From a virus: a DNA stretch of 64,000 nt. The notes beneath the pieces were generated by a model that was not told the DNA's origin, made no database searches, and saw only the letters and a list, made by a program, of their open reading frames with translations. Made by a program: the position numbers and the translations under genes. Positions 4,063 through 16,501 of this stretch are shown here, one piece after another; the first letter of the stretch is position 1; every line of letters starts with the position of its first letter. The stretch is taken from IMG/VR virus record IMGVR_UViG_3300020183_000001, positions 18,634-82,633 of that record; one strand, given 5' to 3'.

Positions 4063-4084
4063 GGTTGTGTTGAGTTGAGTGAAC

Positions 4085-4111
4085 AAGCAGTTTAATGTCG
4101 TGCTCAGGACA
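4085..4111 (-). repeat. family A pseudoknot motif, copy 2
   Basis: TGTCCTGAGCACGACATTAAACTGCTT; compensatory C-G to U-A change in S1. Confidence 0.8.
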
Positions 4112-4128
4112 AATCAATTGTTTGTAAC

Positions 4129-4755
4129 TTAACTAAATGCAGCCTCACCAATAATTGGAAACTGTTTACAAAAAATTTCTTTACACTGTTCTGCAATACG
4201 TCTGTGTTCAAGTTGTGTGCTTACATCAGTTCGTATTTGAATGTAATGTAGCCAACTACGTAATGTACCTGACATGTGCATAGTTGTTTGTGTACACAAA
4301 GGAAGTATGCGCCTGGCACACTCCTTTGCTACACCCGCTTCCAACAACTCTTCATACAGTTGAGTAACAGCAAGTAATACTTCTGTTGTTTTATTTTTTA
4401 AATTTACTTTAACGACTGGATCAATATTATCAATTGAATTCTGTCTGTTCTTCAAGTCTTGTCTTCTGTAATCAGGGATTGTAAATGGTTGAGCTTTAGC
4501 ATAACGAGTTGAATATTCTTGAAATGAAAATGAACGATGCCTAAGTATTTGTGCAGCAATATCACGTTCTGTGTGAATAGTTAAAGTCATGTGCGCCATT
4601 TCAAATGGCGACCAGTGTTTGTGTGTAATTAAATAACGCAACAACTTTGGAGCGGTCACCATATTAGTTGCGTTATCAGGATTAGAAACCCTGGCTAACT
4701 CAACAATAATTTCTTCTGCATTAGGTGTTGCAGATTTAAAAACAACTTGCGTCAT
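4129..4755 (-). CDS. thyX: FAD-dependent thymidylate synthase
   Basis: HWSPFE, QILRHRSFSFQEYSTRY (ThyX RHRx7S motif), AKECAR, TQLEHR. Confidence 0.97.
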   Translation of the reverse strand: MTQVVFKSATPNAEEIIVELARVSNPDNATNMVTAPKLLRYLITHKHWSPFEMAHMTLTIHTERDIAAQILRHRSFSFQEYSTRYAKAQPFTIPDYRRQDLKNRQNSIDNIDPVVKVNLKNKTTEVLLAVTQLYEELLEAGVAKECARRILPLCTQTTMHMSGTLRSWLHYIQIRTDVSTQLEHRRIAEQCKEIFCKQFPIIGEAAFS

Positions 4756-4778
4756 AGTAGTTTGTTTAGATGATCGGA

Positions 4779-4973
4779 CTAAGAGGCTGAAGGATAGTTA
4801 AACAGTTTCTCAATTCGGGCTACTTCGTTTTCGTAAAACTCCATAGCTTCAAACGGGTCCATGTCGTAGGTAAAAGCCAGCACATCTAGTTTGTCCCTCA
4901 GTTCACCAGGCTCTTGTAGTTGCCGAAGAATAAACAGCCGGACTTCGTCTTTGTGGGATTTTTTCAAAGTCAT
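4779..4973 (-). CDS. hypothetical protein
   Basis: 64-aa ORF, co-directional in the operon. Confidence 0.6.
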   Translation of the reverse strand: MTLKKSHKDEVRLFILRQLQEPGELRDKLDVLAFTYDMDPFEAMEFYENEVARIEKLFNYPSAS

Positions 4974-5037
4974 TAGTGGTGTTGATTACTAGGTTTAAGC
5001 ATTCCTTTCCTCTACTGTGTTGGTTTAAATTGATAGA

Positions 5038-5319
5038 TTATTTTTCAAACTCTTTTTTTAATTCTTCGTATTCCTTGCGCCGTTTTTCTTCTCGTTTTTT
5101 CAACGATTTTATTCGTCTTTCGTATTCTTTGTCGGTCTCCAAACGATGTTTGTAAACGTAATATTCCACACCATCGTATCCCCTGTTTTCCATTTCAATT
5201 CCTTCCCAACCATCATCTAGCTCTGATTGCAATAAAGAAATAATCTTTTCAAGAGGACCTTGGAAATCATCCCAAAATCGTTCGGTTTCTTTAACTTGAA
5301 TTTTAAAAGAAGTAGTCAT
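5038..5319 (-). CDS. hypothetical protein
   Basis: 93 aa with strong RBS (GAGGAAAGGA); charged C-terminus. Confidence 0.7.
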   Translation of the reverse strand: MTTSFKIQVKETERFWDDFQGPLEKIISLLQSELDDGWEGIEMENRGYDGVEYYVYKHRLETDKEYERRIKSLKKREEKRRKEYEELKKEFEK

Positions 5320-5331
5320 TAGTCCTTTCCT

Positions 5332-5646
5332 CTACTGTTCAAGAATGAAGTTCAGTGGCATTGCTGAGTAGTCCAATTCGCGGGCAATTTGAAGCAGTTC
5401 AGGTGCGGCAATCATCCCTTGGCCGTCTTGGCACTGGTTAATCACTTCACGCAAAGCGGCGGCCAGCATTTCCTTGTCGCTGACCTCACGGTTGCGCAGA
5501 TCAGCAAGTGTGCAGTAGGCGTCAAAGATTGCTTCTGTTTTCTCTTCAACCTTTTTGCGGGCAGCCTTCTGCCACCAACACGGTTCAAGTTTAACGCCAG
5601 ATACATCAGCGCTGGCTTGGCGCAGGTTATTCATGGGGTCACTCAT
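5332..5646 (-). CDS. hypothetical protein
   Basis: Probable start MSDPMNNL; locally GC-richer. Confidence 0.6.
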   Translation of the reverse strand: MSDPMNNLRQASADVSGVKLEPCWWQKAARKKVEEKTEAIFDAYCTLADLRNREVSDKEMLAAALREVINQCQDGQGMIAAPELLQIARELDYSAMPLNFILEQ

Positions 5647-5839
5647 CAGAAGAAAACCGCCAGAAACTAATCTTGAAAAACGGGAAAGACTTAATAGGAA
5701 ATACAATCCACGTTTTTTGGCTAGTCAAATCAATCCATCCGGTAAGCCCTCGTGGATTAAGACACCCTTGGTTGTGCCAGACCAAACCAAATACTTTGCC
5801 CCAGTCAGACGTGATCTGGATAGGAAGGTCGTCAGTCAT
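5639..5839 (-). CDS. hypothetical protein
   Basis: 66 aa, stop overlaps the next start. Confidence 0.55.
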   Translation of the reverse strand: MTDDLPIQITSDWGKVFGLVWHNQGCLNPRGLTGWIDLTSQKTWIVFPIKSFPFFKISFWRFSSDE

Positions 5840-5869
5840 TAGTCGCTTTCTCTTGTGTGTGTAGTTAAG

Positions 5870-6169
5870 TTATTCAATAGCATTGCGGTAATCCTGGAGC
5901 ACACCAGCTAGTTCATGTTCGTGGCACAGACGGAACTGTGCATGTGTTGATGATCTGCCGTTGTCCCAAGCTACATCGTAGTAGGTGTAGGTGTGTTTGC
6001 GTGCATCTTTTTTTTCAAATACATTGGTTACAACACCAATGCGTTGAGTTGAATTACGCAACACAACAATTGTTTTTTCTGGTCTGATAGTTGGGATGTA
6101 ATTGTCTTTTGGTTTTTCAGCAACGCGATCACCAACCTTGAATCGAATAATCTTAACGTGTTTAGACAT
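5870..6169 (-). CDS. hypothetical protein (KOW/SH3-like)
   Basis: FKVGDRV...IGVVTNV...YYDVAWD pattern; probable start MSKHVK. Confidence 0.6.
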   Translation of the reverse strand: MSKHVKIIRFKVGDRVAEKPKDNYIPTIRPEKTIVVLRNSTQRIGVVTNVFEKKDARKHTYTYYDVAWDNGRSSTHAQFRLCHEHELAGVLQDYRNAIE

Positions 6170-6500
6170 GGGTCCAGACTTTGTAGTTAACAATACGTGA
6201 CACGTGGCCACTGTTGATTCCGTAGATAACAGCAATAGCACGGTTTGATTTGCCTTGACGTTTTAATCTACGAATATCAAGGATGTTCTTTTCAATTAAT
6301 ATTGCATTACCATTTTTAACTCCTTGTGTGTCAGGTAGTTTACCACCACGCTTAGGTCCTCGCTGGTACTTGAGATACCGTTCAACTGTTAAGAACTTTT
6401 TGTTGCAATCAAAGCATTGACAATACCGTTTGGTAAAAGTGTCATAACGATCTGTTGAACTAATTTTTGTATTAGTGCTGTGACATTTAGGACAACGCAT
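6162..6500 (-). CDS. NrdR-like Zn-ribbon fused to an HTH-type DNA-binding domain
   Basis: MRCPKC...RYCQCFDCNKKFLTVE (NrdR N-terminus-like) plus a C-terminal helical domain (IAVIYGI...SRIVNYKVWTHV). Confidence 0.75.
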   Translation of the reverse strand: MRCPKCHSTNTKISSTDRYDTFTKRYCQCFDCNKKFLTVERYLKYQRGPKRGGKLPDTQGVKNGNAILIEKNILDIRRLKRQGKSNRAIAVIYGINSGHVSRIVNYKVWTHV

Positions 6501-6657
6501 TAATTCTTTTCAGTAACTAAGTTGTCTACTACTGCAGGTAAGTATTCATCCAACCAATCTTCAACAGTAAGCTGATCTTCTGCAGCAATAGCAACAAGTT
6601 TCCAATAGGTGCTTTCTTTTAAAGAAAGACGTACATCAATAAACTTTTCTCGTTCAG

Positions 6658-6936
6658 TCATGATTCAATTTCAGTAGGAACTTTATTAAGCTGGAGCGAA
6701 TCTAACACATGTACTGTGGTATCAATACCAACAAAAGAAATAAGATCTTGAATGATCTCATCTTTATGTTCGTGATAATACTCAGAGAGTGATAGTTCTG
6801 CAAGCTTAAGCAATGTATTGAGATCCATCAAATCTACAATCTGTGCAATAGCTGCATCTCTTACTAGATCCCATGTGTGGTCAGGAATGTTGTCGTTGAT
6901 TTGTTGGATGAGCTGTTGAAGTTCTTCTGGTTGCAT
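6658..6936 (-). CDS. hypothetical protein
   Basis: 92-aa helical ORF downstream of the hairpin at 6946-6965. Confidence 0.65.
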   Translation of the reverse strand: MQPEELQQLIQQINDNIPDHTWDLVRDAAIAQIVDLMDLNTLLKLAELSLSEYYHEHKDEIIQDLISFVGIDTTVHVLDSLQLNKVPTEIES

Positions 6937-6987
6937 AAAATAAATACCCCCGTTTGCACGGGGGCTGAGTTGTGTTTCGTAAGTAGT

Positions 6988-7344
6988 TTAAACAGCTTGA
7001 GCACTGGTGTCAATGATGTTATCCATCATGCCAGCCTCACGCATCTTATCCAACATTGCGCACATAATGGTAGCGTGTTCATGTGTTTTATCCATGAATG
7101 CTTTAGCGCGTTCAGGAGTAATGGCATGAACAGTACCATTGGCTTCTACGTATTGCCAGCTACCATCAGGCATTGGTTCTCCCTGGAGTGCAAGACGCTC
7201 TGAGTTGCGTACGTACCTGAACTCAAGATTGTGACAATCAGTAAGACCGTCTACATCAGTCCAGGTCAAGCCAAGGTTGTAACGCTTGTCCTCATCCATG
7301 TAACCATGGGGTTGAGGAATGAGATGTTTGAAGTAGGAAAACAT
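6988..7344 (-). CDS. hypothetical protein
   Basis: 118 aa, preceded by a family B motif and an ACTCAATTCA leader. Confidence 0.7.
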   Translation of the reverse strand: MFSYFKHLIPQPHGYMDEDKRYNLGLTWTDVDGLTDCHNLEFRYVRNSERLALQGEPMPDGSWQYVEANGTVHAITPERAKAFMDKTHEHATIMCAMLDKMREAGMMDNIIDTSAQAV

Positions 7345-7374
7345 GGTGTGAATTGAGTAAATGAACTATTAAAC

Positions 7375-7402
7375 CTGGGACTTACACTGTATAGATGCCC
7401 AG
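7375..7402 (-). repeat. family B bulged hairpin, copy 1
   Basis: CTGGGCATC-TATACA-GTGTAAGTCCCAG. Confidence 0.8.
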
Positions 7403-7406
7403 TTAG

Positions 7407-7904
7407 TCAAACGTTTTTCCAAGTAACTCCCCTGTGGATAAATTGAATACACATATAAGTAACACCATAAACGCCAGCAATTTCTTTATATGCTTGATAA
7501 CAAGATGGATAAGTAGCCATAAACTTTGGATCGTAAAGCATTGTTTTAATTTCCATAACTTGTGATCGAGTAAGTTTAGATGTAAATGGTTTTAGGTTTT
7601 GATTTCTATTTTTTATATATTTCTTGGGTTCTTCTCTTGGAAGTTTTGTAATCTTTGGTTCAATACGTTGTTCAATTTGCCGACCATCTTCTGTATAATC
7701 AATGCGTACAACAGTAGGTTTACTAACTTTTGGTTTGGTTACAACAGGAGCTTGTTCTACTTTTTTAATTACTTTGGTTGTACTGGTTGGCAACTTAATT
7801 GATTGCTCAATTCCATTGTCATCAGTAACAGAGATGTGGAAATAGTTATCTGTTTTAAATACAGATACTTGTTGTGGCTTGGTGTAAGTAACAATAGGTT
7901 GCAT
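7407..7904 (-). CDS. putative DNA-binding protein with C-terminal HTH-like domain
   Basis: C-terminus SKLTRSQVMEIK...IAGVYGVT...IHRGVTWKNV resembles that of 6162-6500; start set after the tRNA. Confidence 0.65.
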   Translation of the reverse strand: MQPIVTYTKPQQVSVFKTDNYFHISVTDDNGIEQSIKLPTSTTKVIKKVEQAPVVTKPKVSKPTVVRIDYTEDGRQIEQRIEPKITKLPREEPKKYIKNRNQNLKPFTSKLTRSQVMEIKTMLYDPKFMATYPSCYQAYKEIAGVYGVTYMCIQFIHRGVTWKNV

Positions 7905-7924
7905 GATTTTAATAGCAAATGGAT

Positions 7925-8000
7925 TGGTACCTGAGGTGAGATTTGAACTCACGCTGGAACGATTTTAAGTCGTTTGCCTCTTCCGCTGGGCTACTCAGGC
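7925..8000 (-). tRNA. trnL: tRNA-Leu(UAA), short variable loop, encoded CCA
   Basis: Acceptor GCCTGAG/CTCAGGT, anticodon arm AACGA-CTTAAAA-TCGTT, T-arm GTGAG-TTCAAAT-CTCAC, ACCA end; 76 nt. Confidence 0.93.
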
Positions 8001-8206
8001 ATACTTGGATTTACACTCACATCTATTGATGTGTGATACCAAGTATGATCATGAGGCAGCGGTTCGCAGCCATAGTTCCACGTATCGTAATCATTCTCGT
8101 TACGTGGGTCTTCAATCAGGATGTACTGAGGTGAGTTGTCATGAATGTAGTTACTAATAGTTGCCATTGCCATGGCAAGAAGTTGATCGTCTGTGTAGTC
8201 AGTCAT
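7991..8206 (-). CDS. hypothetical protein
   Basis: 71 aa; stop overlaps the tRNA 5' end. Confidence 0.6.
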   Translation of the reverse strand: MTDYTDDQLLAMAMATISNYIHDNSPQYILIEDPRNENDYDTWNYGCEPLPHDHTWYHTSIDVSVNPSMPE

Positions 8207-8212
8207 TAAGTG

Positions 8213-8246
8213 TGACCCGTCCTATCCTCGACAATAGGGCGGGTCA
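8213..8246. other. strong intergenic hairpin
   Basis: TGACCCGTCCTAT-N8-ATAGGGCGGGTCA. Confidence 0.6.
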
Positions 8247-8257
8247 GCCTGTGGGGG

Positions 8258-10015
8258 CTAAGCAGATGCTAGCGCAGACTCACGTTGCGTCAACGCCTTG
8301 CTGAATGCAGTTGTGTACAACTCACGTTCCTCATCCGTAAGCCTGGCGTTGCTAATACCAGCGATCTGTTTAACGGACATCATACCCATGTTGACTTCCA
8401 ATTGGATTGTGAACATGGGTTTGCTATCAATCATGCACAGCACAATGAAGTGCTTCTTCTTACGAACACCATCTGCATAACCACTGGCACTACCGACGCA
8501 ATTACGTACGGCTTGTCCCCATGCAGCTAGTTGATGGGTATCAACTGGTTGGAAAAATGTCCACCTACTGGAACCAAGTTCAAGCTTGACTGGTTCTGGG
8601 AACAAATCCTGGGGTAGTGATTCGTTTTTGTTCTTGACCTTCCATGCAACAGACTGAACGTGATCATGGAACTCCATGAGACGCCAACGTTTTGGAACAT
8701 CAAGAGTTAGTGGTTCCGTTGCACATGCATTGTGTGCAAGGATTGTATCTAGCATTGATACCGTATCACTCCAGTTGGAATAATAAAAACGTGGACACTG
8801 TAGATCTGAGTCATAATAGTAACGAGTGTGCGTATTGTTTATTTCTCGTTCATATTCTTTTTCAAGAATAGAAAAGAATGAAGCAACAGGCATGTGTTTG
8901 TTCAACCATGCTTGTGTAATAATTGTACCTTGACGTGTTGATTTAAAACTTAACAGTTGAACAATGTAAGTTTGATAGTAATCAATGGGACACTCAGGCC
9001 ATACGTCATACACAAAAGCAATAGCATTAAATAGTACATGGATCTGAGCCCATGGTCCACGGATACACCTAAGATATTGATTACTAGTATCGTTAAACAT
9101 TGCATTGACTTGATCACATCTTGCTTGAATCCATTTCTTAAAGAACGGAGTAGCAATAATGTGCAGCATCTTGTTTAGTTGCCTATAGATATCACCGTCA
9201 TATCCACTGTCGTGTGCATAATGAGTGATAAGTTTGAACAACAAGTCATATGAGATTACAGCTTTGGTAATGTCATGTTGTTGCCAGAATGTTCTACATT
9301 CTTGACCATAATGATAACCATTAGTGAAGATAACAGAAGCTGGATTGATTGCCCGGAGCCGAGCAAAAGTTGATTGACTGTCAGACCACATAGGGATTGT
9401 GTTAAACAGTTGATCTTCAAATGCTTTTACTTGTTGGCACAGATTACCAGACTTTTTGTAGTAAGCTTGAGCACCTGGGATGTTCCAGTTCTTTGCATCG
9501 TAACCATCAATAATATCTTGTCTGGTTACTAGTTTGTTGAATGTAAAATACTGAACGCGGCCAAGCTGATATGTAGATAGTTTGTTTGGATTGTCAACGT
9601 ATAAGTGCTTACGAACTCTATGTGGCAGCATCTTGTGTGCAGATGCGTTGTCTTTGAATGCAAACGAGTATCCATAAATGTACTGATCTTTTTGATGCTT
9701 AGGTGGTAGCCATGCTGCATACCACACTTGCTCAAAGTGATACAAGATTGCATACGGAGTTACTGCACCTTCAACAATTCGTGTAAACAGTTGGTAACGA
9801 TCAGGTGCAGCCTGCAAATTAATATTGTCAATAGCATCGTTATATAACGATACTGGCAATACTTCAGTTGGAATCAGTTGGTTGGGTTTACCCAGTGGGT
9901 GTGCAGCTTTCTTAGTCTTGTTGTTAATTGTTTTCTGTTGTTTAGCCAGTGCTTTAAGAGCTGGGTCATACGCCAACAACTCTTGTTGTAGTTGAGTAGG
10001 AAGACGGAATTGCAT
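8258..10015 (-). CDS. PcfJ-domain protein
   Basis: C-terminal L..WGQAVRNCVGS..Y...FTIQL...QIAGISN motif; start MQFRLP downstream of the RNA motif. Confidence 0.85.
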   Translation of the reverse strand: MQFRLPTQLQQELLAYDPALKALAKQQKTINNKTKKAAHPLGKPNQLIPTEVLPVSLYNDAIDNINLQAAPDRYQLFTRIVEGAVTPYAILYHFEQVWYAAWLPPKHQKDQYIYGYSFAFKDNASAHKMLPHRVRKHLYVDNPNKLSTYQLGRVQYFTFNKLVTRQDIIDGYDAKNWNIPGAQAYYKKSGNLCQQVKAFEDQLFNTIPMWSDSQSTFARLRAINPASVIFTNGYHYGQECRTFWQQHDITKAVISYDLLFKLITHYAHDSGYDGDIYRQLNKMLHIIATPFFKKWIQARCDQVNAMFNDTSNQYLRCIRGPWAQIHVLFNAIAFVYDVWPECPIDYYQTYIVQLLSFKSTRQGTIITQAWLNKHMPVASFFSILEKEYEREINNTHTRYYYDSDLQCPRFYYSNWSDTVSMLDTILAHNACATEPLTLDVPKRWRLMEFHDHVQSVAWKVKNKNESLPQDLFPEPVKLELGSSRWTFFQPVDTHQLAAWGQAVRNCVGSASGYADGVRKKKHFIVLCMIDSKPMFTIQLEVNMGMMSVKQIAGISNARLTDEERELYTTAFSKALTQRESALASA

Positions 10016-10042
10016 GGTGAGTTCGTAGTGAGTGTGTGGTGT

Positions 10043-10070
10043 TGAGCAGTTTAACGTCATGCTCAGGACG
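10043..10070 (-). repeat. family A pseudoknot motif, copy 3
   Basis: CGTCCTGAGCATGACGTTAAACTGCTCA. Confidence 0.85.
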
Positions 10071-10075
10071 ATGGA

Positions 10076-10291
10076 TCAGATACGCATTACCTCTTCACCG
10101 TTACAGGTAAAGACTAGTTGATCGTCATAGTCATCCATGTATTCCTGCAATGTCATAGTCTTCTCTGGTGTGAAGACAGGCATTTCGTTTGCAAAACCAA
10201 ACGCACTGTACACACGACCTTTGGGACCACGAATTACCAGGTACCACCGTTTGAATTCGATAGAGAAACCAATCATGATGCTAGGTACCAA
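10076..10291 (-). CDS. hypothetical protein
   Basis: About 71 aa, tiles the operon; start uncertain. Confidence 0.55.
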   Translation of the reverse strand: MVPSIMIGFSIEFKRWYLVIRGPKGRVYSAFGFANEMPVFTPEKTMTLQEYMDDYDDQLVFTCNGEEVMRI

Positions 10292-10533
10292 TCAGATGTG
10301 TCGACAAGTTGCCATTGAAGATCTCTGTCAGCAAGATACTGACAGAAGCCATCTTCATCAACAGGGATTTGTTCATCCTCATCCAATTCAAAATCTGCAA
10401 TACAAAGTGCTGGAGCCCATTCATCAGGTTCAAAGTAAGTTGCTTTGTGTAGAAGAAGCATGTCTTCAACAAGTGCAGTAACTGTGACATGGGATTGATT
10501 GATGGTTGTTTCTTCAATTGATAAGATTGTCAT
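10273..10533 (-). CDS. hypothetical acidic protein
   Basis: 86 aa, ATG with ACTC leader. Confidence 0.65.
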   Translation of the reverse strand: MTILSIEETTINQSHVTVTALVEDMLLLHKATYFEPDEWAPALCIADFELDEDEQIPVDEDGFCQYLADRDLQWQLVDTSDWYLAS

Positions 10534-10625
10534 GAGTGTAGTTAGTAGAGATAACTATTGTCACTAATAGTGCCTCCGTGGTACAGGTTTGCAGGGGGGT
10601 CCAGGGGGGACCCCATGCATGTACC

Positions 10626-10802
10626 TTAGTCAGGTTCTACAAACTGACAAGCAGTTGTGATGTAACACTTGTATTTGTTCCAGGCACGTGCTGTGCAGAA
10701 CTCGCCATGGAACCGTTGTTCATCACTGCAGTATTCACGTGCACGCTTAGCTGCACACTGTGCAAGATTGATGCGATCAAACATGCTAATGTAGTTGTCC
10801 AT
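10626..10802 (-). CDS. small hypothetical protein (58 aa)
   Basis: MDNYISMFDRINLAQCAA..., directly downstream of family B copy 2. Confidence 0.6.
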   Translation of the reverse strand: MDNYISMFDRINLAQCAAKRAREYCSDEQRFHGEFCTARAWNKYKCYITTACQFVEPD

Positions 10803-10833
10803 AGTTAAGTTGTTGTTGGGGTTGAAGTTGATG

Positions 10834-10872
10834 CTGGGACTTACACCACGTACTTATGTAGGTGATGCCCAG
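10834..10872 (-). repeat. family B bulged hairpin, copy 2
   Basis: CTGGGCATCACCTACATAAGTACGTGGTGTAAGTCCCAG. Confidence 0.8.
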
Positions 10873-10876
10873 TGTT

Positions 10877-11137
10877 TCAGTCTTCTTTATCAAATGATTT
10901 CATAATTGATTCAGGCATAGACATTTCAATTGAAGGCAAGTCATAGTCGTCATTTGTATCAACAATAATTTTATGTAACGGAAAATATCCATCACTAAGA
11001 TCAGCGTTGAGTTTCCAAATTTCTACTAATAGTTCTCGAAAAAATCTTTTTCGGTCCTCTATGCCTGTAAACTCATCAGCACCATAAACTTTTTTAGTGT
11101 CAGTAAATTTAAATTCAATAGTAAATGAATCGATCAT
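10877..11137 (-). CDS. hypothetical protein
   Basis: 86 aa. Confidence 0.6.
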   Translation of the reverse strand: MIDSFTIEFKFTDTKKVYGADEFTGIEDRKRFFRELLVEIWKLNADLSDGYFPLHKIIVDTNDDYDLPSIEMSMPESIMKSFDKED

Positions 11138-11142
11138 GATCT

Positions 11143-11340
11143 TTAGATTATCTTTATGTTTCGTTTGCTTAAACCGGTGCCTGGGATTGAGATAGATCCA
11201 AGGACACCAGACTGCCGTGCGTTAAGTGTTAGTTGGAATGGACCAAGTTTAATTGATTTGGTGTACGATTTGATACCATGTTCAGTTAAGTTAAAGCCAG
11301 CGATAGTACGGTCAAAGTTAATAGGTGATTTCTTTGTCAT
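11143..11340 (-). CDS. small basic protein, DUF4236-like
   Basis: KSIKLGPFQLTL...SISIPGTGLS motif; probable start MTKKSP. Confidence 0.6.
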   Translation of the reverse strand: MTKKSPINFDRTIAGFNLTEHGIKSYTKSIKLGPFQLTLNARQSGVLGSISIPGTGLSKRNIKII

Positions 11341-11557
11341 AACCAAAGTCGTGAATTTGTTTAACAAGTTTGTGTTCGTCTTGAGTTAATTGTGAATATA
11401 AATATTCAACCATATCATCATCAGATGATAATGAATTGATTGCAGCAATTGCACGATGTTTGTCATGTGTTGTTGTATAAGAATGTGGATGAGAAATAAT
11501 TTTAGATATGCAATCTAAAATTTTATTGTAACGAGCTTCGTTTACTTCATTTGTCAT
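11318..11557 (-). CDS. hypothetical protein
   Basis: Probable start MTNEVNE overlapping the upstream stop. Confidence 0.55.
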   Translation of the reverse strand: MTNEVNEARYNKILDCISKIISHPHSYTTTHDKHRAIAAINSLSSDDDMVEYLYSQLTQDEHKLVKQIHDFGYDKEITY

Positions 11558-11880
11558 CACCAGTCTCCACAAGTAAATGTTTGAGTAACAACAAATGAAA
11601 GAGCAAAGGTCTCCTCTTCAATCTCGTCTTCTTCTGCTGGATAGTAACGAGCTTCGAATCCGCCAGTGCCTACCGATCGATCATTAATAGATCGATACAA
11701 AAGATTCCGACATGAACGCTTCATACGTTCAATGGTTGGAACAGTTAAGCTACCGTCTTCCATAACGTTAGCCCACTTCCAATCAAGTGCAGTCATTGCA
11801 ATTTGGACTTTCTCAAAGTTAAAACGTTCGAGAAGGTCTTCAATAAGTTGGGATTGATGTTCAGTGATTGTGAATGTCAT
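11557..11880 (-). CDS. hypothetical protein
   Basis: 107 aa, FNFEKV..AM.ALDWKW motif. Confidence 0.7.
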   Translation of the reverse strand: MTFTITEHQSQLIEDLLERFNFEKVQIAMTALDWKWANVMEDGSLTVPTIERMKRSCRNLLYRSINDRSVGTGGFEARYYPAEEDEIEEETFALSFVVTQTFTCGDW

Positions 11881-11959
11881 TGCAGTTATTCAAACATTTT
11901 GATAAAGAGAATTGTGCCACATATAAAAAATGTGCACAATACTAATGCATCAGGCCAGC

Positions 11960-12241
11960 TCATGGTTTGTTGTAAATAGTTCCGTTGCGTTTGTAAAGAT
12001 CAAACCCATGCATAGTCTTTGTGTCAAGTGTAGTGTAAGGACCAATGTTGGCACAGCCAATTAAGTAGTAGAACTTAAAGAAGCCTGGGTGTTCATCCCA
12101 CTCTTCATCAGTACACATAAGTTTAGATCCAACACCAAACGTATTCTTACGTTGGGTAGTCCATATGTCACCTGGCTGAGCAGGCAGGTGACGTGTCTTA
12201 GATTGAGTCTTAGGTTGAGTCTTTGGTTTAGTTGTAGTCAC
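11960..12241 (-). CDS. hypothetical protein
   Basis: 93 aa, 4-nt overlap with the upstream gene. Confidence 0.6.
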   Translation of the reverse strand: MTTTKPKTQPKTQSKTRHLPAQPGDIWTTQRKNTFGVGSKLMCTDEEWDEHPGFFKFYYLIGCANIGPYTTLDTKTMHGFDLYKRNGTIYNKP

Positions 12242-12456
12242 TGCAGATCTCCTGGCATGAGTGCATTGGTGTCTTCATCAGACATATTGGACATAACAAA
12301 TTTGTTTCCATCGGCGTCTACAAAGCCGCCGACAAAACCAATACCATGTCGATCAGCAGATTCTTTCATCTTTGCAACGATTGACATAGCTTGCAACCGT
12401 TGGTTATCAATGGCATCAGGGATGCGTGGTTTGGGTGCGTCGTTAAGTGCAGTCAT
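12238..12456 (-). CDS. hypothetical protein
   Basis: 72 aa, downstream of family B copy 3. Confidence 0.7.
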   Translation of the reverse strand: MTALNDAPKPRIPDAIDNQRLQAMSIVAKMKESADRHGIGFVGGFVDADGNKFVMSNMSDEDTNALMPGDLQ

Positions 12457-12483
12457 GGTGAGTTAAGTGTGTAGTAGTTGAGC

Positions 12484-12526
12484 AAGCTGGGACTTACACG
12501 CCTTCTGTCAGAGCGATGCCCAGCTT
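12484..12526 (-). repeat. family B bulged hairpin, copy 3
   Basis: AAGCTGGGCATCGCTCTGACAGAAGGCGTGTAAGTCCCAGCTT. Confidence 0.8.
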
Positions 12527-12636
12527 GTGTTTATAAGCTTACCACCCTCTGTCAAGGGTGACCACCCCGTTCATGAGTGGGAGCGTGCATATTTGGGGTG
12601 AAAGCTTATTGAGAATTTAAATAAATGTTTAATTTA

Positions 12637-13008
12637 TTAATTAGCTTTTGTTAATTCAAATGTATTTAAGTTATTGTTCATTGTTTTAAAACCCCATTTT
12701 CTACGGTTAGTATTTTGTTCAGATTTTATTGCCCATTTTAAATTATTTGGATTATTGTTAGATGGACAATTATCAATGTGATCAATAGTCATAGATAATT
12801 TGTATTCATTAAAAGTTAAAACATACACTATTAAATGTACTGGATATTGTTTACCTTTATATGTAACACGCCAATATCCATGTGAAGTTAAACAACCTGC
12901 AACGTTGTTTGCTTTAACACGATTAGTAATTGATATTTTCCATCTTAAAAAAGATGGAGAAGTTTCATCTACATAAAACAAATTTTTAAATAAGGTTAAA
13001 TTGTTCAT
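12637..13008 (-). CDS. HNH homing endonuclease (HNH_3 type)
   Basis: AG.L...GY.RV...VHLIVY...IDHIDNCPSNNNPNNLKW...EQNTN; strongly AT-rich relative to neighbours. Confidence 0.85.
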   Translation of the reverse strand: MNNLTLFKNLFYVDETSPSFLRWKISITNRVKANNVAGCLTSHGYWRVTYKGKQYPVHLIVYVLTFNEYKLSMTIDHIDNCPSNNNPNNLKWAIKSEQNTNRRKWGFKTMNNNLNTFELTKAN

Positions 13009-13013
13009 TGCAG

Positions 13014-13337
13014 TTACCGATGCATTTCTTGGTGTTCTTTCCATGCAGCAGTGTGCATTTCATCCATAGTTATCGGTGGTTCACCAACCCATTCATCTGG
13101 TTCATCAGGCCATTCGATAGCTTGCTCAAGTTGACCAATGGCTTCTAACAGATATTCTTCGTAATGATACGGAAGATCATTGTATCCCAAGGGACGATTC
13201 TGTTCCCGTTGGTAGATAGCCATAAGTTCTTCGATGATCAGCGTGATGCGCATGTCATCGTTGAGCTGGTAGGTATGTGTACTACCATCATGACGGGTGT
13301 ACGTGTTGCTGGTGAATTGAAGTTGATGTTTAGCCAT
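13014..13337 (-). CDS. hypothetical protein
   Basis: 107 aa, downstream of family B copy 4. Confidence 0.7.
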   Translation of the reverse strand: MAKHQLQFTSNTYTRHDGSTHTYQLNDDMRITLIIEELMAIYQREQNRPLGYNDLPYHYEEYLLEAIGQLEQAIEWPDEPDEWVGEPPITMDEMHTAAWKEHQEMHR

Positions 13338-13364
13338 GGTGTGTTTGTTGATAGTTGATTTGAT

Positions 13365-13405
13365 GCTGGGACTTACATCACGTACTTATGTAGTAAATGC
13401 CCAGC
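13365..13405 (-). repeat. family B bulged hairpin, copy 4
   Basis: GCTGGGCATTTACTACATAAGTACGTGATGTAAGTCCCAGC. Confidence 0.8.
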
Positions 13406-13470
13406 TTGTAGTATTAGTACTATTGCCAATACATGGATAGTATTGGCAAGTTTTATGTGCGCTTCAATAC

Positions 13471-13752
13471 TTAGATTAAGCCAAGGATTGAGAGCCAACT
13501 GTTGGGGTCGTCGGGTTCGACCTCGTCCTCCTCTGGCGTGAAACAGACTGAGTCGAAGACCCACTCTTCAATTTCTTCGAGCGTGGGGACGGGGTACCAC
13601 TCACGTTTCCAGAAGATGTGCGGCCAACCGTCTCTGATTTCAACGTCGTGGAAGCAGAGTGTGGTGTCGGCTGGCTCTTGTCCCTCTTCGTTGGTGAGTG
13701 GGGTGTAACCGACGATTGCAGCAATGTCGTGTTGGATGGGTTGGAGGGCCAT
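13471..13752 (-). CDS. hypothetical acidic protein
   Basis: 93 aa ending VEPDDPNSWLSILGLI. Confidence 0.7.
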   Translation of the reverse strand: MALQPIQHDIAAIVGYTPLTNEEGQEPADTTLCFHDVEIRDGWPHIFWKREWYPVPTLEEIEEWVFDSVCFTPEEDEVEPDDPNSWLSILGLI

Positions 13753-13848
13753 AGTAGTGAGATGAATTGAAGGAACAGTGTAGTGAGAATGGTCAGGATA
13801 ACGATGATGTGTAGTATTACATCATCATTATATTGTTGAGGCTGAGTG

Positions 13849-13986
13849 TTAGTCATCAGTTAGTTCATCAGTTGGGTTAGGTGGTTGCATCTCTTCTTGC
13901 ATAGCTTGTTCCTGCTGGTACGCAAGGTCAGACCATGCGTCAAGAAGATCTGCATTGTAGTTCTCATCGAGTTGTTGAGTTGTCAT
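13849..13986 (-). CDS. small acidic protein (45 aa)
   Basis: MTTQQLDENYNADLLDAW..., downstream of family A copy 4. Confidence 0.55.
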   Translation of the reverse strand: MTTQQLDENYNADLLDAWSDLAYQQEQAMQEEMQPPNPTDELTDD

Positions 13987-14005
13987 CGAATGAGTTGATA
14001 AAGGA

Positions 14006-14034
14006 CTGAGCAGTTTAACGTCATACTCAGGACG
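14006..14034 (-). repeat. family A pseudoknot motif, copy 4
   Basis: CGTCCTGAGTATGACGTTAAACTGCTCAG. Confidence 0.85.
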
Positions 14035-14083
14035 GATATCAAGAATATGAATAAACGACGTTTATCAGAATTCCAAGTAATAG

Positions 14084-14560
14084 CTAGTCAAATGGTTTAA
14101 AATCTGTATCTTTCAAGAGAGAGTCAATGTGTGCAACATCGCATTCTCTCATGTATTCACTTAAGTTTTCTGATGGATCAATCTCATAGTCATCAGTTTG
14201 ATTCTCAACAACTTCGCATCCAATGTCTTCGAGTTGATCAACGTAGTTATCCCAGCTATTGGCATTGCCATAGACATGGGCATAACGCCCGGTCTGGTCA
14301 ACGACAAGTGCTACATAAGTCATGGGTTGAGCCTCAGGTAGTGTGAAGGGTCTTTGTTCTGCAGCCATTAACTTTGCAGTAATGGCACGCAAATCGTGCC
14401 TAGATAGTTCTCCATTTGGTCTCCACTTCAACGCGGTATTTGCAAATGTTGTAGTAGGTAAGACCATTGGAATAACAGATAGGTTAATTAGTTTACCGTG
14501 GTTCGACCAAGGTTTGTTGGCATGACCACTGTAGTAAAGACTTTGTAAAGTCGGTACCAA
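14084..14560 (-). CDS. hypothetical protein (start uncertain)
   Basis: ORF up to 158 aa with acidic C-terminal half. Confidence 0.55.
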   Translation of the reverse strand: MVPTLQSLYYSGHANKPWSNHGKLINLSVIPMVLPTTTFANTALKWRPNGELSRHDLRAITAKLMAAEQRPFTLPEAQPMTYVALVVDQTGRYAHVYGNANSWDNYVDQLEDIGCEVVENQTDDYEIDPSENLSEYMRECDVAHIDSLLKDTDFKPFD

Positions 14561-14711
14561 GCATAGCGCCTGTTACGACAAAAGCGATACCGATAACAAT
14601 GGTTGCAGATAAAAAGTTACAAAGGTAACGTCCTGCTCTACTGCTGTGGTACTCAGGGTACACATCAGTGTGAATAAATTGTTTAGGTCCAAGTTTAGTA
14701 ATCTGTTTCAT
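14493..14711 (-). CDS. small membrane protein
   Basis: MKQITKLG..., one hydrophobic helix (FLSATIVIGIAFVVTGAMLG). Confidence 0.55.
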   Translation of the reverse strand: MKQITKLGPKQFIHTDVYPEYHSSRAGRYLCNFLSATIVIGIAFVVTGAMLGTDFTKSLLQWSCQQTLVEPR

Positions 14712-14787
14712 TGGAGAAAGTCCTGTGTAGTAGGAATCAACCTTCGGTTGATGGACGGAGTAATACAACTGTACTACGTTGCAATAG

Positions 14788-14855
14788 GCAGGAGAGGAAG
14801 AAGATCTCCTGCAGAAAACCCACTCATCAATGATGAGCAGGGTTAAGTGCAAGAA
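14788..14855 (-). repeat. family C X-hairpin-Y-Z motif, copy 1
   Basis: TTCTTGCA..CCC-hairpin-GGG TTTTC TGCAGGAG..CTCCTGC. Confidence 0.7.
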
Positions 14856-14870
14856 TCAGTTAGTCAAGAG

Positions 14871-15263
14871 TCAGGCCGCAGCAGTTGCAGCCTTCTTCTT
14901 ACTAGCAGCCTTCGTTCCTTCCTCAGCTTTGGGCTGAGGCTTGGAACCAAAGGCATAATCAGTCACTTTCAGTTGAAACTCTGGTTGCTTGAGCGGCATG
15001 AGCTCTTCATCTTTCATATAGAAAGCACGGATGCCTTGAATTTTACCAGACACCGTGAGCTCTTGGCCTACAACCAGATTGTCATTGGTATAAGCAGTAA
15101 GCAAACCATTGCTGTTGAAGAATTTGATTGTGACCACAGCATCTTTAGAGATACGGTGGTACAAAGTAACAACCAAACAGTCACGCTCATCTTCCGTTTT
15201 GATAACGATAAGACTTGCAATGCGACCAACAACAGTAAACGTTTGCAGATCAGCGTAAGTCAT
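14871..15263 (-). CDS. second SSB/OB-fold-like protein
   Basis: FTVVGRI...LVVGQELTVSGKI OB-fold pattern; basic Ala/Lys tail; start MTYADLQ. Confidence 0.65.
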   Translation of the reverse strand: MTYADLQTFTVVGRIASLIVIKTEDERDCLVVTLYHRISKDAVVTIKFFNSNGLLTAYTNDNLVVGQELTVSGKIQGIRAFYMKDEELMPLKQPEFQLKVTDYAFGSKPQPKAEEGTKAASKKKAATAAA

Positions 15264-15293
15264 AAAATTAAATTGAGTTGAGTTGATAAGCAA

Positions 15294-15345
15294 GCAGAGA
15301 TGAACTCTGCAGAAACCCATCGAAATCGATGGGAATATGCAAAGA
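15294..15345 (-). repeat. family C motif, copy 2
   Basis: TCTTTGCA TATT CCCATCGATTTCGATGGG TTTC TGCAGAG..CTCTGC. Confidence 0.7.
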
Positions 15346-15528
15346 TCACCAGTCGTAAACACGAATGGCTTTAAGGTTAACAGGAGAGATATCCAGTAGT
15401 TCAGCACCAGCAAGCAATGCTTCTGTTTGTGTGCGAGCCATTAGCTCAATAACAAACTCACTACTAAACACTTTCCAAATAACCAAGGGACGTTCCACGA
15501 TTAGTCCACTAGATGTTCTTGTTCCCAT
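15346..15528 (-). CDS. small hypothetical protein
   Basis: 60 aa; stop immediately followed by a family C motif. Confidence 0.5.
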   Translation of the reverse strand: MGTRTSSGLIVERPLVIWKVFSSEFVIELMARTQTEALLAGAELLDISPVNLKAIRVYDW

Positions 15529-15743
15529 TTAAGAAGTGCACGGTTGAGATCAACCTTCTTCTCAAGGACAACACAGAACGGGACCAAGTCTTGGAACTGT
15601 ACCAAGCCATCTTGCCATTGATAAAAGATCTCCAGTGCAGCCTGGCGCTGACTTTCAATCTCCTGATCAATGATAGGAGTGTCTCGACGTGCAAGAAGAC
15701 GAGCTTCTTGGGTAAGGAGACGTTCAACAGCTTTAGGAGTCAT
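15501..15743 (-). CDS. hypothetical protein
   Basis: 80 aa with AACTC-repeat leader. Confidence 0.65.
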   Translation of the reverse strand: MTPKAVERLLTQEARLLARRDTPIIDQEIESQRQAALEIFYQWQDGLVQFQDLVPFCVVLEKKVDLNRALLKWEQEHLVD

Positions 15744-15772
15744 AGCGAAACCAAGTGGAGTTGAGTTGAGTT

Positions 15773-15828
15773 GTGCAGATGTAAAGTCTGCAGAAACCCA
15801 TCTTGTTACAGATGGGAATTTGTAGACA
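15773..15828 (-). repeat. family C motif, copy 3
   Basis: TGTCTACA AATT CCCATCTGTAACAAGATGGG TTTC TGCAGAC..TCTGCAC. Confidence 0.7.
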
Positions 15829-16095
15829 TCACATCATTTGTTCGATGCGTTCTTGCTCCATTGTGGTGGAATAGTCGTAATACTCTTGCATCTCCATCAG
15901 CATGTCTTTCATGCTGGTAGGAATTGAACCAAGAGTACGTACGTCGCGATCAATCCACTCTTGCCATGTGGCACCAGTGTCTAGATCATACATGTTCCAC
16001 AACTTCTCAAAGTGAAGCTGTGTAGTTTCAACGTTGTACCAAGTAACGCGATACCGTCCTTCGTCAGGACGGTAGGTAAGTGTTGGGGTAGCCAT
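15829..16095 (-). CDS. hypothetical protein
   Basis: 88 aa. Confidence 0.65.
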   Translation of the reverse strand: MATPTLTYRPDEGRYRVTWYNVETTQLHFEKLWNMYDLDTGATWQEWIDRDVRTLGSIPTSMKDMLMEMQEYYDYSTTMEQERIEQMM

Positions 16096-16098
16096 AAG

Positions 16099-16284
16099 TC
16101 AATTAGTTTTGTAACCGTTAGAAGCACACCAATTCATATGAATTTGATGCGCAGGCTTAGGCCAGTCATGTTGAAGGCATTGTTTAGCAGTTGCTTCGTG
16201 CAACAAACGTGCACCAATGCAACTAGCAATACCTCCACCAATAACAACGGTAGCAATGTAAATAACCAATTGATTCTTAGTCAT
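16099..16284 (-). CDS. small membrane protein
   Basis: MTKNQLVIYIATVVIGGG.. TM helix followed by C...HDWP...H..WC. Confidence 0.6.
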   Translation of the reverse strand: MTKNQLVIYIATVVIGGGIASCIGARLLHEATAKQCLQHDWPKPAHQIHMNWCASNGYKTN

Positions 16285-16501
16285 GAGTTGATGTGCAGTT
16301 GACAATCGTTAGGCATAATAAGTGCAGCCGCACGAATGCGGTATTCACTTATCTTCTGTCCAAGCTGCTGTTTAGATGGCAGCTTAGCAGTTTCTACTGC
16401 AGATGCTGTTAGTTTCAGCAATGCAGCAGTATTCTTTCGAATGTGTAGTGCAGTCATAAGTTGAATTGAGTTAAGCCACTCTCAGTGAGTGGCAATAGTT
16501 A

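Follow-up and report, generated by a model that had tools for sequence, protein, structure and literature searches.

Genomic location of the hairpin copies

The phage under study is an 82.6-kb (82,633-bp) lake relative of Synechococcus phage S-EIV1. A stretch of 64,000 nucleotides of its genome, referred to as the window, was analyzed, and positions are counted from its first letter. The window reveals a small hairpin in four copies, located on the minus strand only and matching the pattern CTGGGCAT-N(8-19)-TGTAAGTCCCAG. The four copies named in the initial annotation are all present on this strand; the starts given there for the third (12484) and fourth (13365) hold only when the adjoining flank pairs are reckoned as part of the stem, while the pattern gives 12487 and 13366. 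The total, however, is five, as a diverged member at 8004-8043(-) had been overlooked. In 5' to 3' order of the minus strand, the features are:

13366..13404, minus strand: copy 4 (39 nt), z -3.91, covariance-model score 45.4 bits, E 4.7e-12; the preceding ORF ends about 66-71 nt upstream, and the next ATG (ORF 13014-13337) lies 28 nt downstream
12487..12523, minus strand: copy 3 (37 nt), z -3.15, 39 bits; flanks add 4 bp to the basal stem; upstream lies an HNH endonuclease ORF (12637-13044), 113 nt away, and the ATG of ORF 12238-12456 follows 30 nt downstream
10834..10872, minus strand: copy 2 (39 nt), z -3.46, 42.1 bits; the stop of ORF 10877-11137 lies 4 nt before it and the ATG of ORF 10626-10802 31 nt downstream
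8004..8043, minus strand: fifth, diverged member, 38.9 bits, E 7.2e-10; basal stem CUUGG/CCAAG, TAAAT in place of TAAGT, U/A in place of C6/G22; its 3' end lies 3 nt before the 5' end of tRNA-Leu(UAA)
7925..8000, minus strand: tRNA-Leu, anticodon UAA, directly downstream of the fifth hairpin
7375..7402, minus strand: copy 1 (28 nt, minimal form), z -0.92, 39.3 bits; the stop of ORF 7407-7904 lies 4 nt before it and the ATG of ORF 6988-7344 30 nt downstream
7345..7374, minus strand: G-poor leader without Shine-Dalgarno sequence between copy 1 and its ATG
10803..10833, 12457..12486 and 13338..13365, minus strand: equivalent leaders of copies 2, 3 and 4

The full pattern matches four times in the whole 82,633-bp genome, every time on the reverse strand, and the control, the same pattern read backwards, yields 0 matches. 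The 12-mer of the hairpin has exactly five exact occurrences in the window, and with up to two mismatches 12 matches are found, compared to a mean of 4.65 and a maximum of 10 in shuffled sequence (0 of 100 shuffles reach 12). A further exact 12-mer at 44751(-) lacks the 5' arm and is thus no family member. Copies 2 to 4 each exceed every one of 200 shuffles in folding stability (z -3.2 to -3.9); the fold of copy 1 is no better than that of shuffled sequence (z -0.92, 200 shuffles).

Core sequence and consensus structure

Family members measure 26-60 nt, with about 20 fixed bases, and are composed of a 6-bp basal helix (one variable pair plus CUGGG/CCCAG), an asymmetric internal loop and a variable apical stem-loop. 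The internal loop reads C-A-(U) on its 5' side and (U)-G/A-UAA-G-U on its 3' side, where the UAA never changes. Across 150 family sequences, positions U2, G4, G5, U19, A20, A21, C24, C25, and A27 are invariant; the larger set of parts first described as invariant is so within this window only. The 26-28-nt forms comprise six basal pairs, at most three core pairs and one or two apical pairs, in total about 10-11 pairs.

Both helices covary, and homologues keep the core, so that the initial view of a structured RNA whose core is fixed and whose apex is free is borne out. The additional basal pair 6-59 forms in 113 of 150 sequences with six pair types, the apical pair 15-46 in all 150 with four pair types, and pair 16-45 in 134. 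Covariation scores of 0.326 and 0.317 stand against a shuffle mean of 0.11-0.12; 0 of 500 shuffles reach either, and slid controls do not exceed 0.105. Beyond the flank pair 6-59, pairing is at chance level (5-60 in 78 of 150, 4-61 in 59 of 150). With the 3' core as sole anchor, the basal arm is fully paired in 217 of 296 contexts, by CTG/CAG (165), CTT/AAG (22), CTA/TAG (9), ATG/CAT (7), and other combinations.

The unpaired 5-nt UAAGU bulge of the initial annotation stands as regards its UAA, which is conserved, but is doubtful as a bulge. C6-G22 pairs in every one of the 150 sequences, shows two double changes and is chosen by RNAalifold, while the pair C6-G18 proposed previously is broken in 15 of 150; yet single-sequence energies favor the register with C6-G18 against C6-G22. 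Part of the 'invariant 5-nt bulge' is probably base-paired, and the region is better called an asymmetric internal loop that is conserved and in which the UAA is invariant.

The apex varies in length and sequence, with 77 distinct, dispersed variants among 155 exact-pattern matches. Copies 2 and 4 do share an identical 15-nt apex, as had been noticed. A recent duplication or conversion, though possible, is not needed to explain it, because this apex belongs to an old and widespread 39-nt subtype; the set has 32 distinct cores of 39 nt, and the subtype is present at orthologous sites of the relatives L122 and L123.

In 35 distinct cores of 26 or 28 nt, GNRA loops occur eight times (expected 1.1) and UNCG loops four times (expected 0.5) on the gene-sense strand, compared to two and zero on the opposite strand of the same cores. 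Among the variable pairs, 31 cells are G.U and 16 are A.C. Given the covariation of both helices and the tetraloop enrichment on the sense strand only, the hairpin is therefore an RNA element. Its position suggests that it is cis-acting and transcribed within polycistronic phage messages.

Distribution among phages and hosts

The core is present in at least 117 IMG/VR contigs. Its carriers belong to at least four unrelated cyanophage-like lineages and offer dozens of gene contexts, with at least 30 ORF families adjoining downstream and at least 38 upstream. The closest cultured relatives of three carrier classes are the Synechococcus phages S-EIV1, S-CBWM1, and S-CBS1/3, and S-EIV1 itself has hairpin copies. 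Other lineages have a single copy, and a 39-kb siphovirus is also a carrier. No protein family common to G000 and the G003, G001/G002 and G004/G005 carrier classes was detected by blastp at 1e-4, a comparison in which some records are incomplete (G000 is 100% and G003 96% complete) and which a short or fast-evolving partner could escape.

Among cyanobacterial hosts, no credible copy was found in 401 genomes searched with a relaxed pattern or in 121 genomes searched with the covariance model. The Rfam 15 gathering scan of the whole window returned tRNA only, a permissive scan (E <= 10) of positions 7000-14000 gave nothing overlapping the hairpin copies, and a literature search found no paper with the hairpin sequence. 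The hairpin family is absent from the RNA catalogues searched. With its core also kept in homologues, neither outcome that the initial annotation named as refuting was observed.

Placement relative to genes and tRNAs

In the usual layout, a stop codon is followed after 3-8 nt by the hairpin, a G-poor leader of 27-31 nt and an ATG; in the alternative layout, the hairpin lies 3-5 nt ahead of a tRNA. In a set of 127 distinct occurrences, a stop codon precedes 83 hairpins at 0-8 nt; for 84 of the 127, an ATG follows at a distance of 18-32 nt, with a peak at 27-31 nt. Within the window, the distance to the ATG is 28-31 nt. Twenty-seven of 280 occurrences lie 3-5 nt before a co-oriented tRNA, which accounts for 27 of the 40 tRNAs of these loci. 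Two classes deviate: in the capsid-gene class the hairpin directly precedes the major capsid gene, with the ATG 47-53 nt away and a GGAGA Shine-Dalgarno sequence present, and in the GC-rich class the hairpin is followed by a non-coding stretch of about 350 nt.

The leaders contain 6.0% G, compared to 23.7% overall, and share the motifs ACTCAA (35 of 88) and TCAAC (47 of 88). Other structured families in the same arm also precede such G-poor leaders. Apart from the A's of the stop codon and the G-poor leader, no conserved positions were found upstream of the hairpin or between hairpin and ATG. Immediately 3' of the hairpin, R-N-W-U is modestly enriched (90 of 186 distinct flanks; shuffle mean 56, maximum 75), and T is modestly preferred at +3 and +4.

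Homology blocks shared with the relatives L122-L126 begin or end at hairpin edges, and L123 has one additional hairpin-gene cassette. Counted by eye, approximately 17 of 152 HSP ends fall within 25 nt of a hairpin, compared to 3.5% of the sequence. An HNH gene is inserted beside copy 3. Many different small genes adjoin this one short core, which may therefore act as an exchange point for gene cassettes.

Proposed role and alternative explanations

From the observed structure, strand, position and distribution of the hairpin, and its absence from the searched hosts, we infer a partner, possible cleavage and an effect on expression. Tentatively, and with somewhat less than even confidence, we propose that the hairpin is recognized by a trans-acting factor, probably of the host, and serves to punctuate polycistronic transcripts with regard to their processing or stability. 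The internal loop would provide the recognition surface. The factor, an endoribonuclease or RNA-binding protein, would most likely be host-encoded, because the carriers share no detectable protein and all resemble picocyanobacterial phages. Binding or cutting at the hairpin would punctuate the transcript such that the upstream cistron would end in a folded 3' structure, while the downstream unit, either an unstructured leader with its ORF or a tRNA, would become an independent segment; relative stability and expression of neighboring genes would be set in this way. Against this proposal counts that a host factor reading the core would be expected to find it in host transcripts, too, and it was found in none of the 401 and 121 genomes searched. 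The short forms are unlikely to protect 3' ends simply through a strong stem, since copy 1 is no more stable than shuffles, and the tight ATG spacing of 27-31 nt would equally fit a translational role. An unlikely further idea is a horizontally shared 'host-handle', in which the invariant UAA loop would dock onto one conserved picocyanobacterial machine as a virus-only RNA ligand without cellular counterpart. RNase E or J, an RRM-type RNA-binding protein or, by a tetraloop-receptor-like contact, the ribosome would be candidates, and the phage would either commandeer this machine for its own transcripts or blind it.

The partner might instead be phage-encoded, making the hairpin the operator of a translational repressor, activator or antiterminator, in analogy to the MS2/PP7 coat-protein hairpins, T4 RegA sites and lambda N-boxB. 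A fixed core with a free apex suits this class, as do the five copies within a single operon of small early ORFs and the constant ATG distance of 28-31 nt in the window, and arginine-rich or other small partners would evade blastp. We nevertheless regard it as rather improbable in view of the blastp comparison, which gave no common protein family for G000 and the G003, G001/G002 and G004/G005 classes, the 27 copies ahead of tRNAs and the single copies in other lineages. A boxB/nut-type antitermination hairpin in particular, with a conserved apical loop read by an N-type protein at one or two sites per operon, is rejected by the variable apex and five sites in one arm. A similarly low probability is assigned to a ribosome standby element that would dock the 30S subunit or S1 and present the G-poor leader for a start without Shine-Dalgarno sequence. 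The ATG spacing (18-32 nt in 84 of 127, peak 27-31), leaders with 6% G and their ACTCAA (35/88) and TCAAC (47/88) motifs, the hairpin directly before the major capsid gene in another lineage and the same leader type behind other structured families of the arm speak for it; an untranslated tRNA rather than an ORF after 27 of 280 copies, the Shine-Dalgarno sequence and longer distance in the capsid-gene class and the long non-coding stretch in the GC-rich class do not. Quite unlikely is a role mainly as a recombination linker for swaps of small genes, with a secondary RNA function as insulator or weak attenuator. This would account for the block edges in L122-L126, the extra cassette of L123, the nearby HSP ends and the HNH gene at copy 3, and PeSLs are described as mediating such shuffling (PMC4122927, PMC2839356). 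It leaves unexplained, however, why two helices carry compensatory changes, why the tetraloops are biased to one strand and why the UAA is invariant; moreover, the hairpin has no sigma-70-like promoter, and breakpoints at gene borders are expected regardless.

Just as doubtful as a linker is a decoy, i.e., an abundant phage RNA module that titrates or blocks a host RNA-targeting defence or ribonuclease. The restriction to phages, with no copy in the host genomes searched, the identical core in unrelated phages of one host group and several copies in the early arm are consistent with it, but a decoy would not require such strict positions with respect to stop codons, ATGs and tRNAs, and CRISPR-repeat likeness is missing. 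A CRISPR or solitary repeat unit, which would be constant including its loop and usually arranged in arrays, is rejected by the variable apices and dispersed copies. A small ribozyme or ligand-binding aptamer could make use of the nearly invariant asymmetric internal loop between two variable helices, and is very improbable given a minimal form of 26-28 nt, without expression platform or further conserved flanks, and no Rfam overlap with any copy even at E <= 10. Hardly credible, too, is a DNA-level signal or terminator, for which the position just upstream of genes and tRNAs and the modest T preference at +3 and +4 could be invoked. Already the initial annotation rejected a terminator for want of a U-tract, and rightly so: at least four T's among the first six flanking nucleotides occur in only 16 of 166 distinct cores, and in 27 copies a co-oriented tRNA starts 3-5 nt downstream. 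An ordinary U-tract terminator of this phage lies elsewhere, at 6965-6946(-). Variable spacing between the halves rules out a duplex operator or -35/-10 promoter, and a promoter scan revealed no more sites than in shuffles and no sigma-70-like promoter beside the hairpin. In N4-type promoters, a phage-encoded or virion RNA polymerase reads hairpins with a conserved small loop; here, no phage RNA polymerase was found, the loop is variable, the longest ORF has 1072 aa, i.e., no giant ORF exists, and PF00940 had no match, a weak result as the control matched nowhere either. The 39-kb siphovirus among the carriers and the RNA-type tetraloops on the sense strand argue against DNA-level signals as well.

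Small RNA signals that organize phage transcripts are known from few model coliphages, and we know of almost nothing of this kind for cyanophages, which control globally important primary producers. One element ahead of early ORFans, tRNAs and the major capsid gene in at least four unrelated lineages, and in none of the searched hosts, points to a single conserved partner acting in trans, and a simple bait could identify it. The cultured pair of S-EIV1 and Synechococcus PCCC-A2c has the family, so direct testing is possible. For annotators, the covariance model constitutes a marker of gene-cassette borders in freshwater cyanophage contigs.

Comparison with known systems

The 11-nt GAAA tetraloop receptor is CCUAAG/UAUGG. 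As a lead only, the hairpin likewise has UAAG opposite an A-U-containing strand, and its invariant AA step could form a platform; in contrast to the receptor, its long strand has extra U residues, and no tetraloop partner was identified. In the MS2/PP7 coat-protein sites and the lambda/P22 boxB, small hairpins too, specificity is carried by few unpaired bases within a helical frame, and the same may hold by analogy for our element. There, however, the apical loop belongs to the recognized surface, whereas our element has a free apex and a fixed internal loop, and no cognate phage protein was found.

PeSLs (promoter-early stem-loops) of T4-type phages are described as composite terminator/promoter motifs mediating gene-cassette shuffling (PMC4122927, PMC2839356); the hairpin has neither a sigma-70-like promoter nor a U-tract. 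Like the PeSLs, it is a short and conserved intergenic motif that recurs ahead of small variable genes where related phages differ by indels or replacements, and block borders at hairpin edges were found in L122, L123, and L124-L126. Different from PeSLs, the conservation of the hairpin follows an RNA-structure pattern and crosses phage lineages.

The RNase III signals of the T7 early mRNA (R0.3-R1.3) are repeated internal-loop hairpins between cistrons with a duplex of about 20 bp. They share with our element the repetition, the internal loop, the lack of a U-tract and the intercistronic, sense-strand location in an early polycistronic message; for the hairpin this location is apparent from the stop codons (83/127) and ATGs (84/127), and it is presumably transcribed. 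The T7 duplex extends over about two helical turns, compared to about 10-11 pairs in the short hairpins, which thus differ in this respect. The core of the hairpin is far more conserved than the T7 sites and, unlike these, is common to unrelated phages.

Genomic setting and copies of the hairpin

The source record comprises 82,633 bp with terminal repeats, and the window corresponds to its bases 18634-82633. The minus strand holds every gene from approximately 17,500 down to 1, an arm of small ORFs and genes for a PcfJ-like protein, ThyX, a gp88-family protein, DNA polymerase A and SSB, with a primase/helicase further on; the plus strand carries the terminase, capsid, tail and lysis genes. The nearest cultured relative is Synechococcus phage S-EIV1 (TerL 82% and PolA 75% identical), and the 24 sequencing runs listed as containing the sequence are all of DNA from lake or freshwater samples.

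At four sites the plus strand reads CTGGGACTTACA...ATGCCCAG, and thus the hairpin as written in the initial annotation lies on the minus strand. As the replication/small-ORF arm is encoded there as well, the hairpins are on the sense strand of this arm, whose gene content suggests early expression. All four copies originally proposed are present; the full pattern occurs four times in the 82,633-bp genome, always on the reverse strand, and its backwards-read control not once. The count of four was nevertheless incomplete. The 3' half of the core is a 12-mer with exactly five occurrences in the window; with up to two mismatches there are 12, versus a shuffle mean of 4.65. A genuine fifth hairpin has its 3' half in one of the two-mismatch matches, at 8004-8015. 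The covariance-model search suggested in the initial annotation returns exactly five sites genome-wide, and a relaxed pattern gives the identical five.

Members of the hairpin family in the window
7375-7402, minus strand: hairpin copy 1, full pattern
10834-10872, minus strand: hairpin copy 2, full pattern
12487-12523, minus strand: hairpin copy 3, full pattern
13366-13404, minus strand: hairpin copy 4, full pattern
8004-8043, minus strand: fifth member, ending 3 nt before a tRNA-Leu(UAA) at 7925-8000

Eight of the nine ORFs flanking these hairpins have no PHROG or Pfam match, the exception being an HNH endonuclease. A 71-aa ORF (7991-8206, minus strand) spans the tRNA-linked hairpin and reaches 10 nt into the tRNA gene, and in the S-EIV1 record an annotated CDS likewise covers that phage's diverged hairpin; either the end of the 71-aa ORF is miscalled, or coding overlaps RNA structure. 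An orphan exact 12-mer, TGTAAGTCCCAG, is found at 44751-44762 (minus strand) without a 5' arm, antisense within an 861-aa ORF (43368-45953, plus strand). By our estimate, about 0.008 exact 12-mers are expected by chance in the window; the orphan could be a relic or a coincidence.

Helices, RNA strand and core loop

We aligned 150 distinct sequences with 6-nt flanks, after removing cores above 52 nt and two probable false positives, and then six of the 156 left. The set required a perfect 5-bp basal stem, and hence the 100% pairing of columns 7-11 with 54-58 is by construction. The apical pair 15-46 is formed in 150 of 150 sequences (CG 111, UA 34, UG 4, AU 1) and 16-45 in 134 of 150, while a sixth basal pair contributed by the flanks (6-59), seen in 113 of 150, takes six different pair types. 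For the structure as a whole the covariation score is 0.32-0.33, a value reached by none of 500 shuffles (mean 0.11-0.12) and by no slid control (at most 0.105). In an unbiased recheck of the basal stem, anchored on TAAGTCC and three free bases only, the 5' arm is fully paired in 217 of 296 contexts (CTG/CAG 165, CTT/AAG 22, CTA/TAG 9, ATG/CAT 7, and others); the remainder consists of about eight evident members with one mismatch, as judged by eye, and of unrelated 7-mers.

Among 35 distinct cores with short apices, GNRA loops occur eight times and UNCG loops four times, compared to two and zero when the opposite strand is read. The variable pairs contain 31 G.U cells versus 16 A.C cells. Both biases indicate that the folded molecule is the gene-sense RNA.

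The initial annotation had paired C6-G18 and A7-U17, leaving a 5-nt UAAGU bulge. These positions are unpaired in 15 and 29 of 150 sequences, respectively, whereas an alternative register pairs C6-G22 in 150 of 150 and A7-U19 in 140 of 150, together with U8-N18 (UG 107, UA 11, CG 5). C6-G22 shows two C-G to U-A double changes, both in tRNA-linked hairpins, and is independently picked by RNAalifold. Nearest-neighbour energies of the five window copies, on the other hand, favor the register with the bulge by 1-6 kcal/mol. Since the core is near-invariant, covariation is no arbiter between the two. Firmly supported is an asymmetric internal loop in which U19, A20 and A21 are constant in 150 of 150 aligned sequences.

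Position relative to genes and tRNAs

In the window, 28-31 nt separate every canonical hairpin from the ATG of the ORF that follows, and two of these hairpins start 4 nt past the preceding stop codon. The matches listed include 127 distinct occurrences of the exact pattern. In 83 of them an upstream ORF of at least 40 codons ends 0-8 nt before the hairpin; in 84, an ORF of at least 40 codons has its ATG 18-32 nt downstream (peak 27-31), and in 19 the ATG lies 47-53 nt downstream, the spacing of the capsid-gene class. A same-strand tRNA begins 3-5 nt after the hairpin in 27 of 280 occurrences (25 Leu, 2 Asn), and 27 of the 40 tRNAs of carrier loci directly follow a hairpin, both among the matches listed.

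The leaders, i.e., the stretches between hairpin and ATG, contain 6.0% G versus 23.7% overall; they carry ACTCAA and TCAAC motifs and lack a Shine-Dalgarno sequence. A pseudoknot of GUAAGU with the leader is no part of the motif, as the complement is too rare: ACTTAC was seen in 8 of 88 distinct leaders, where shuffles give a mean of 1.8 and at most 7, and the shorter ACTTA in 17 of 88. Directly past the 3' end of the stem, G-N-U-U is moderately preferred, and 90 of 186 distinct flanks have R-N-W-U, compared to a mean of 56 and at most 75 in shuffles; RNase E prefers to cleave at R-N-W-U-U. Upstream of the hairpins, no conserved sequence was detected except the A's of stop codons.

Further elements were observed in this arm. 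A second repeated element, containing GACGTTAAAC or GACATTAAAC, occurs on the minus strand at 975-1021, 4063-4107, 13987-14031 and 17009-17053, and directly precedes leaders that are likewise poor in G and lack a Shine-Dalgarno sequence. As both this element and the hairpin family precede similar leaders, several structures share the slot structure-leader-ATG. A 10-bp inverted repeat, TTGCCAATAC...GTATTGGCAA (13423-13449), lies just upstream of hairpin 4 and may be an operator or a region of early control; GCCAATAC or GCGAATAC repeats occupy the equivalent place upstream of the hairpins of relatives (L014, L015, L043, L045, L072). A canonical intrinsic terminator (6946-6965, minus strand), with a GC-rich 8-bp stem and a U-run, closes the unit that hairpin 1 leads; the next ORF (6658-6936) has its ATG 10 nt further on.

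Distribution in viruses and bacteria

The exact pattern was found on at least 117 IMG/VR contigs. Among the matches listed there are 155 occurrences with 77 distinct sequences, a count that includes four loci of the source genome itself; with up to two mismatches per half, the matches listed rise to 280 occurrences with 166 distinct cores. More than one group of phages carries the hairpin.

Classes of hairpin carriers
S-EIV1-like genomes, 70-86 kb: several hairpins each
Fragments of larger phages, capsid protein 66.6% identical to Synechococcus phage S-CBWM1: hairpin immediately before the major head gene
Siphovirus-like contigs, GC 0.50-0.65, TerL 51% identical to Synechococcus phages S-CBS1/S-CBS3: hairpin after a TerL-HNH-phrog_4652 block
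Phages of about 110-150 kb: hairpin precedes tRNA-Asn or a 429-aa ORF

The ORFs adjoining the hairpins belong to at least 30 downstream and at least 38 upstream families. An all-against-all blastp of ORFs of at least 45 aa from ten carriers (G000, the source genome, to G005, and L005, L012, L038, L063) revealed no protein family common to the classes. S-EIV1 itself has two clear members and a diverged one, none of them annotated. No member is found in the whole record of S-CBS1; in that of S-CBWM1, relaxed-pattern matches occur only at control level, with nothing before the capsid gene, around which a 6-kb stretch was scanned with the covariance model.

Two classes contain additional features. 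In the GC-rich siphovirus-like class (L012, L021, L032, L068 and others), an apparently non-coding, GGC-repeat-rich stretch of about 350 nt lies 3' of the hairpin; it separates phrog_4652 from the head-tail joining gene and might be a cos region or an ncRNA. In capsid-gene loci (L006, L020, L038, L039, L062 and others), a second small palindromic hairpin, which covaries (TGGTTGCAACCA, TGTGTGCACACA, TGTGTATACACA), is located between the family hairpin and the major head gene, followed by TTTGAAGAC and a GGAGA Shine-Dalgarno sequence.

Searched with the exact pattern, bacterial genomes yielded seven matches, of which only one folds like the hairpin family. This locus (L132) is a 2.5-kb MAG contig with an S-EIV1-type leader and ORF start, and looks like a fragment of an S-EIV1-type phage; the other six matches look like chance. 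Within Cyanobacteriota, the relaxed pattern matched two of 401 sampled genomes, the same MAG and a chance match antisense inside an 845-aa ORF, and the covariance model one of 121, again the MAG only.

Possible function

The variable spacing between the hairpin halves excludes a duplex-DNA operator and a -35/-10 promoter. A hairpin promoter is disfavored, since no phage RNA polymerase was found and the hairpin is present in a 39-kb siphovirus; the absence of PF00940 matches is a weak result, as the control matched nowhere either, and an 878-aa ORF outside the window, considered as a polymerase, was identified as the primase/helicase. That the element is not a terminator, as proposed from the start, is supported by the missing U-tract, which is indeed absent 3' of the hairpins, and by tRNAs only 3-5 nt downstream. 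Classical RNase III substrates need more base pairs than the short hairpin forms offer, which argues against this class. The tRNA contexts speak against a purely translational role, and the low stability of the minimal form (copy 1) against a mere exonuclease block.

A near-invariant internal loop between two free helices, found in unrelated phages with only their likely host group in common, is best accounted for by a single trans-acting partner. This partner, in the simplest case an endoribonuclease or RNA-binding protein of the host, would recognize the hairpin and segment polycistronic transcripts there. Both the partner and the biochemical event are what we infer from comparative data, and we advance this reading tentatively, with somewhat less than even confidence. 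What weakens it most is the lack of the hairpin in the host genomes searched; a small phage protein, ribosome docking or a decoy function are therefore credible, if individually less likely, alternatives to a host partner.

Cassette borders and relation to known elements

Comparing window positions 4000-16500 with five protein-anchored relatives (L122-L126) and S-EIV1, we observed that homology blocks repeatedly begin or stop at hairpin edges.

Block edges at hairpins
6 nt before hairpin 2: L122, L123
First base of hairpin 1: L122, L124
Hairpin 4: L123, with an extra hairpin-gene cassette
Within or just past hairpin 3: L123-L126

As counted from the comparison table, 17 of the 152 block ends fall no more than 25 nt from a hairpin; hairpins with these margins cover 3.5% of the sequence. 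The HNH homing-endonuclease ORF (12637-13044, minus strand; phrog_99, E 3.4e-26) is inserted between hairpin 3 and the gene that hairpin 4 leads, and this segment is an indel missing from the close relatives L122 and L123. An association of HNH genes with the hairpin is not general: they occur near it in 21 of 125 loci among the matches listed, and are a fixed neighbor only in the siphovirus-like L012 class.

An already described Rfam family, which the initial annotation had considered, does not account for the element, as no Rfam match overlaps any hairpin copy. In the literature searched, the 12-mer matched only unrelated vertebrate papers, and searches on S-EIV1, on cyanophage stem-loops and RNase E, and on structured RNAs of cyanophages yielded no account of the motif. 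More than ten thousand candidate structured RNAs in viruses, five of them upstream of a major capsid protein family, are reported in PMC10690425, whose supplementary tables may list the motif unnamed. The hairpin is an uncatalogued family with an unusual distribution, across lineages and virus-only in the genomes searched. As a kind, it belongs among the already known intercistronic RNA signals of phages, and its cassette borders find a parallel in the PeSL cassettes of T4-type phages (PMC4122927).
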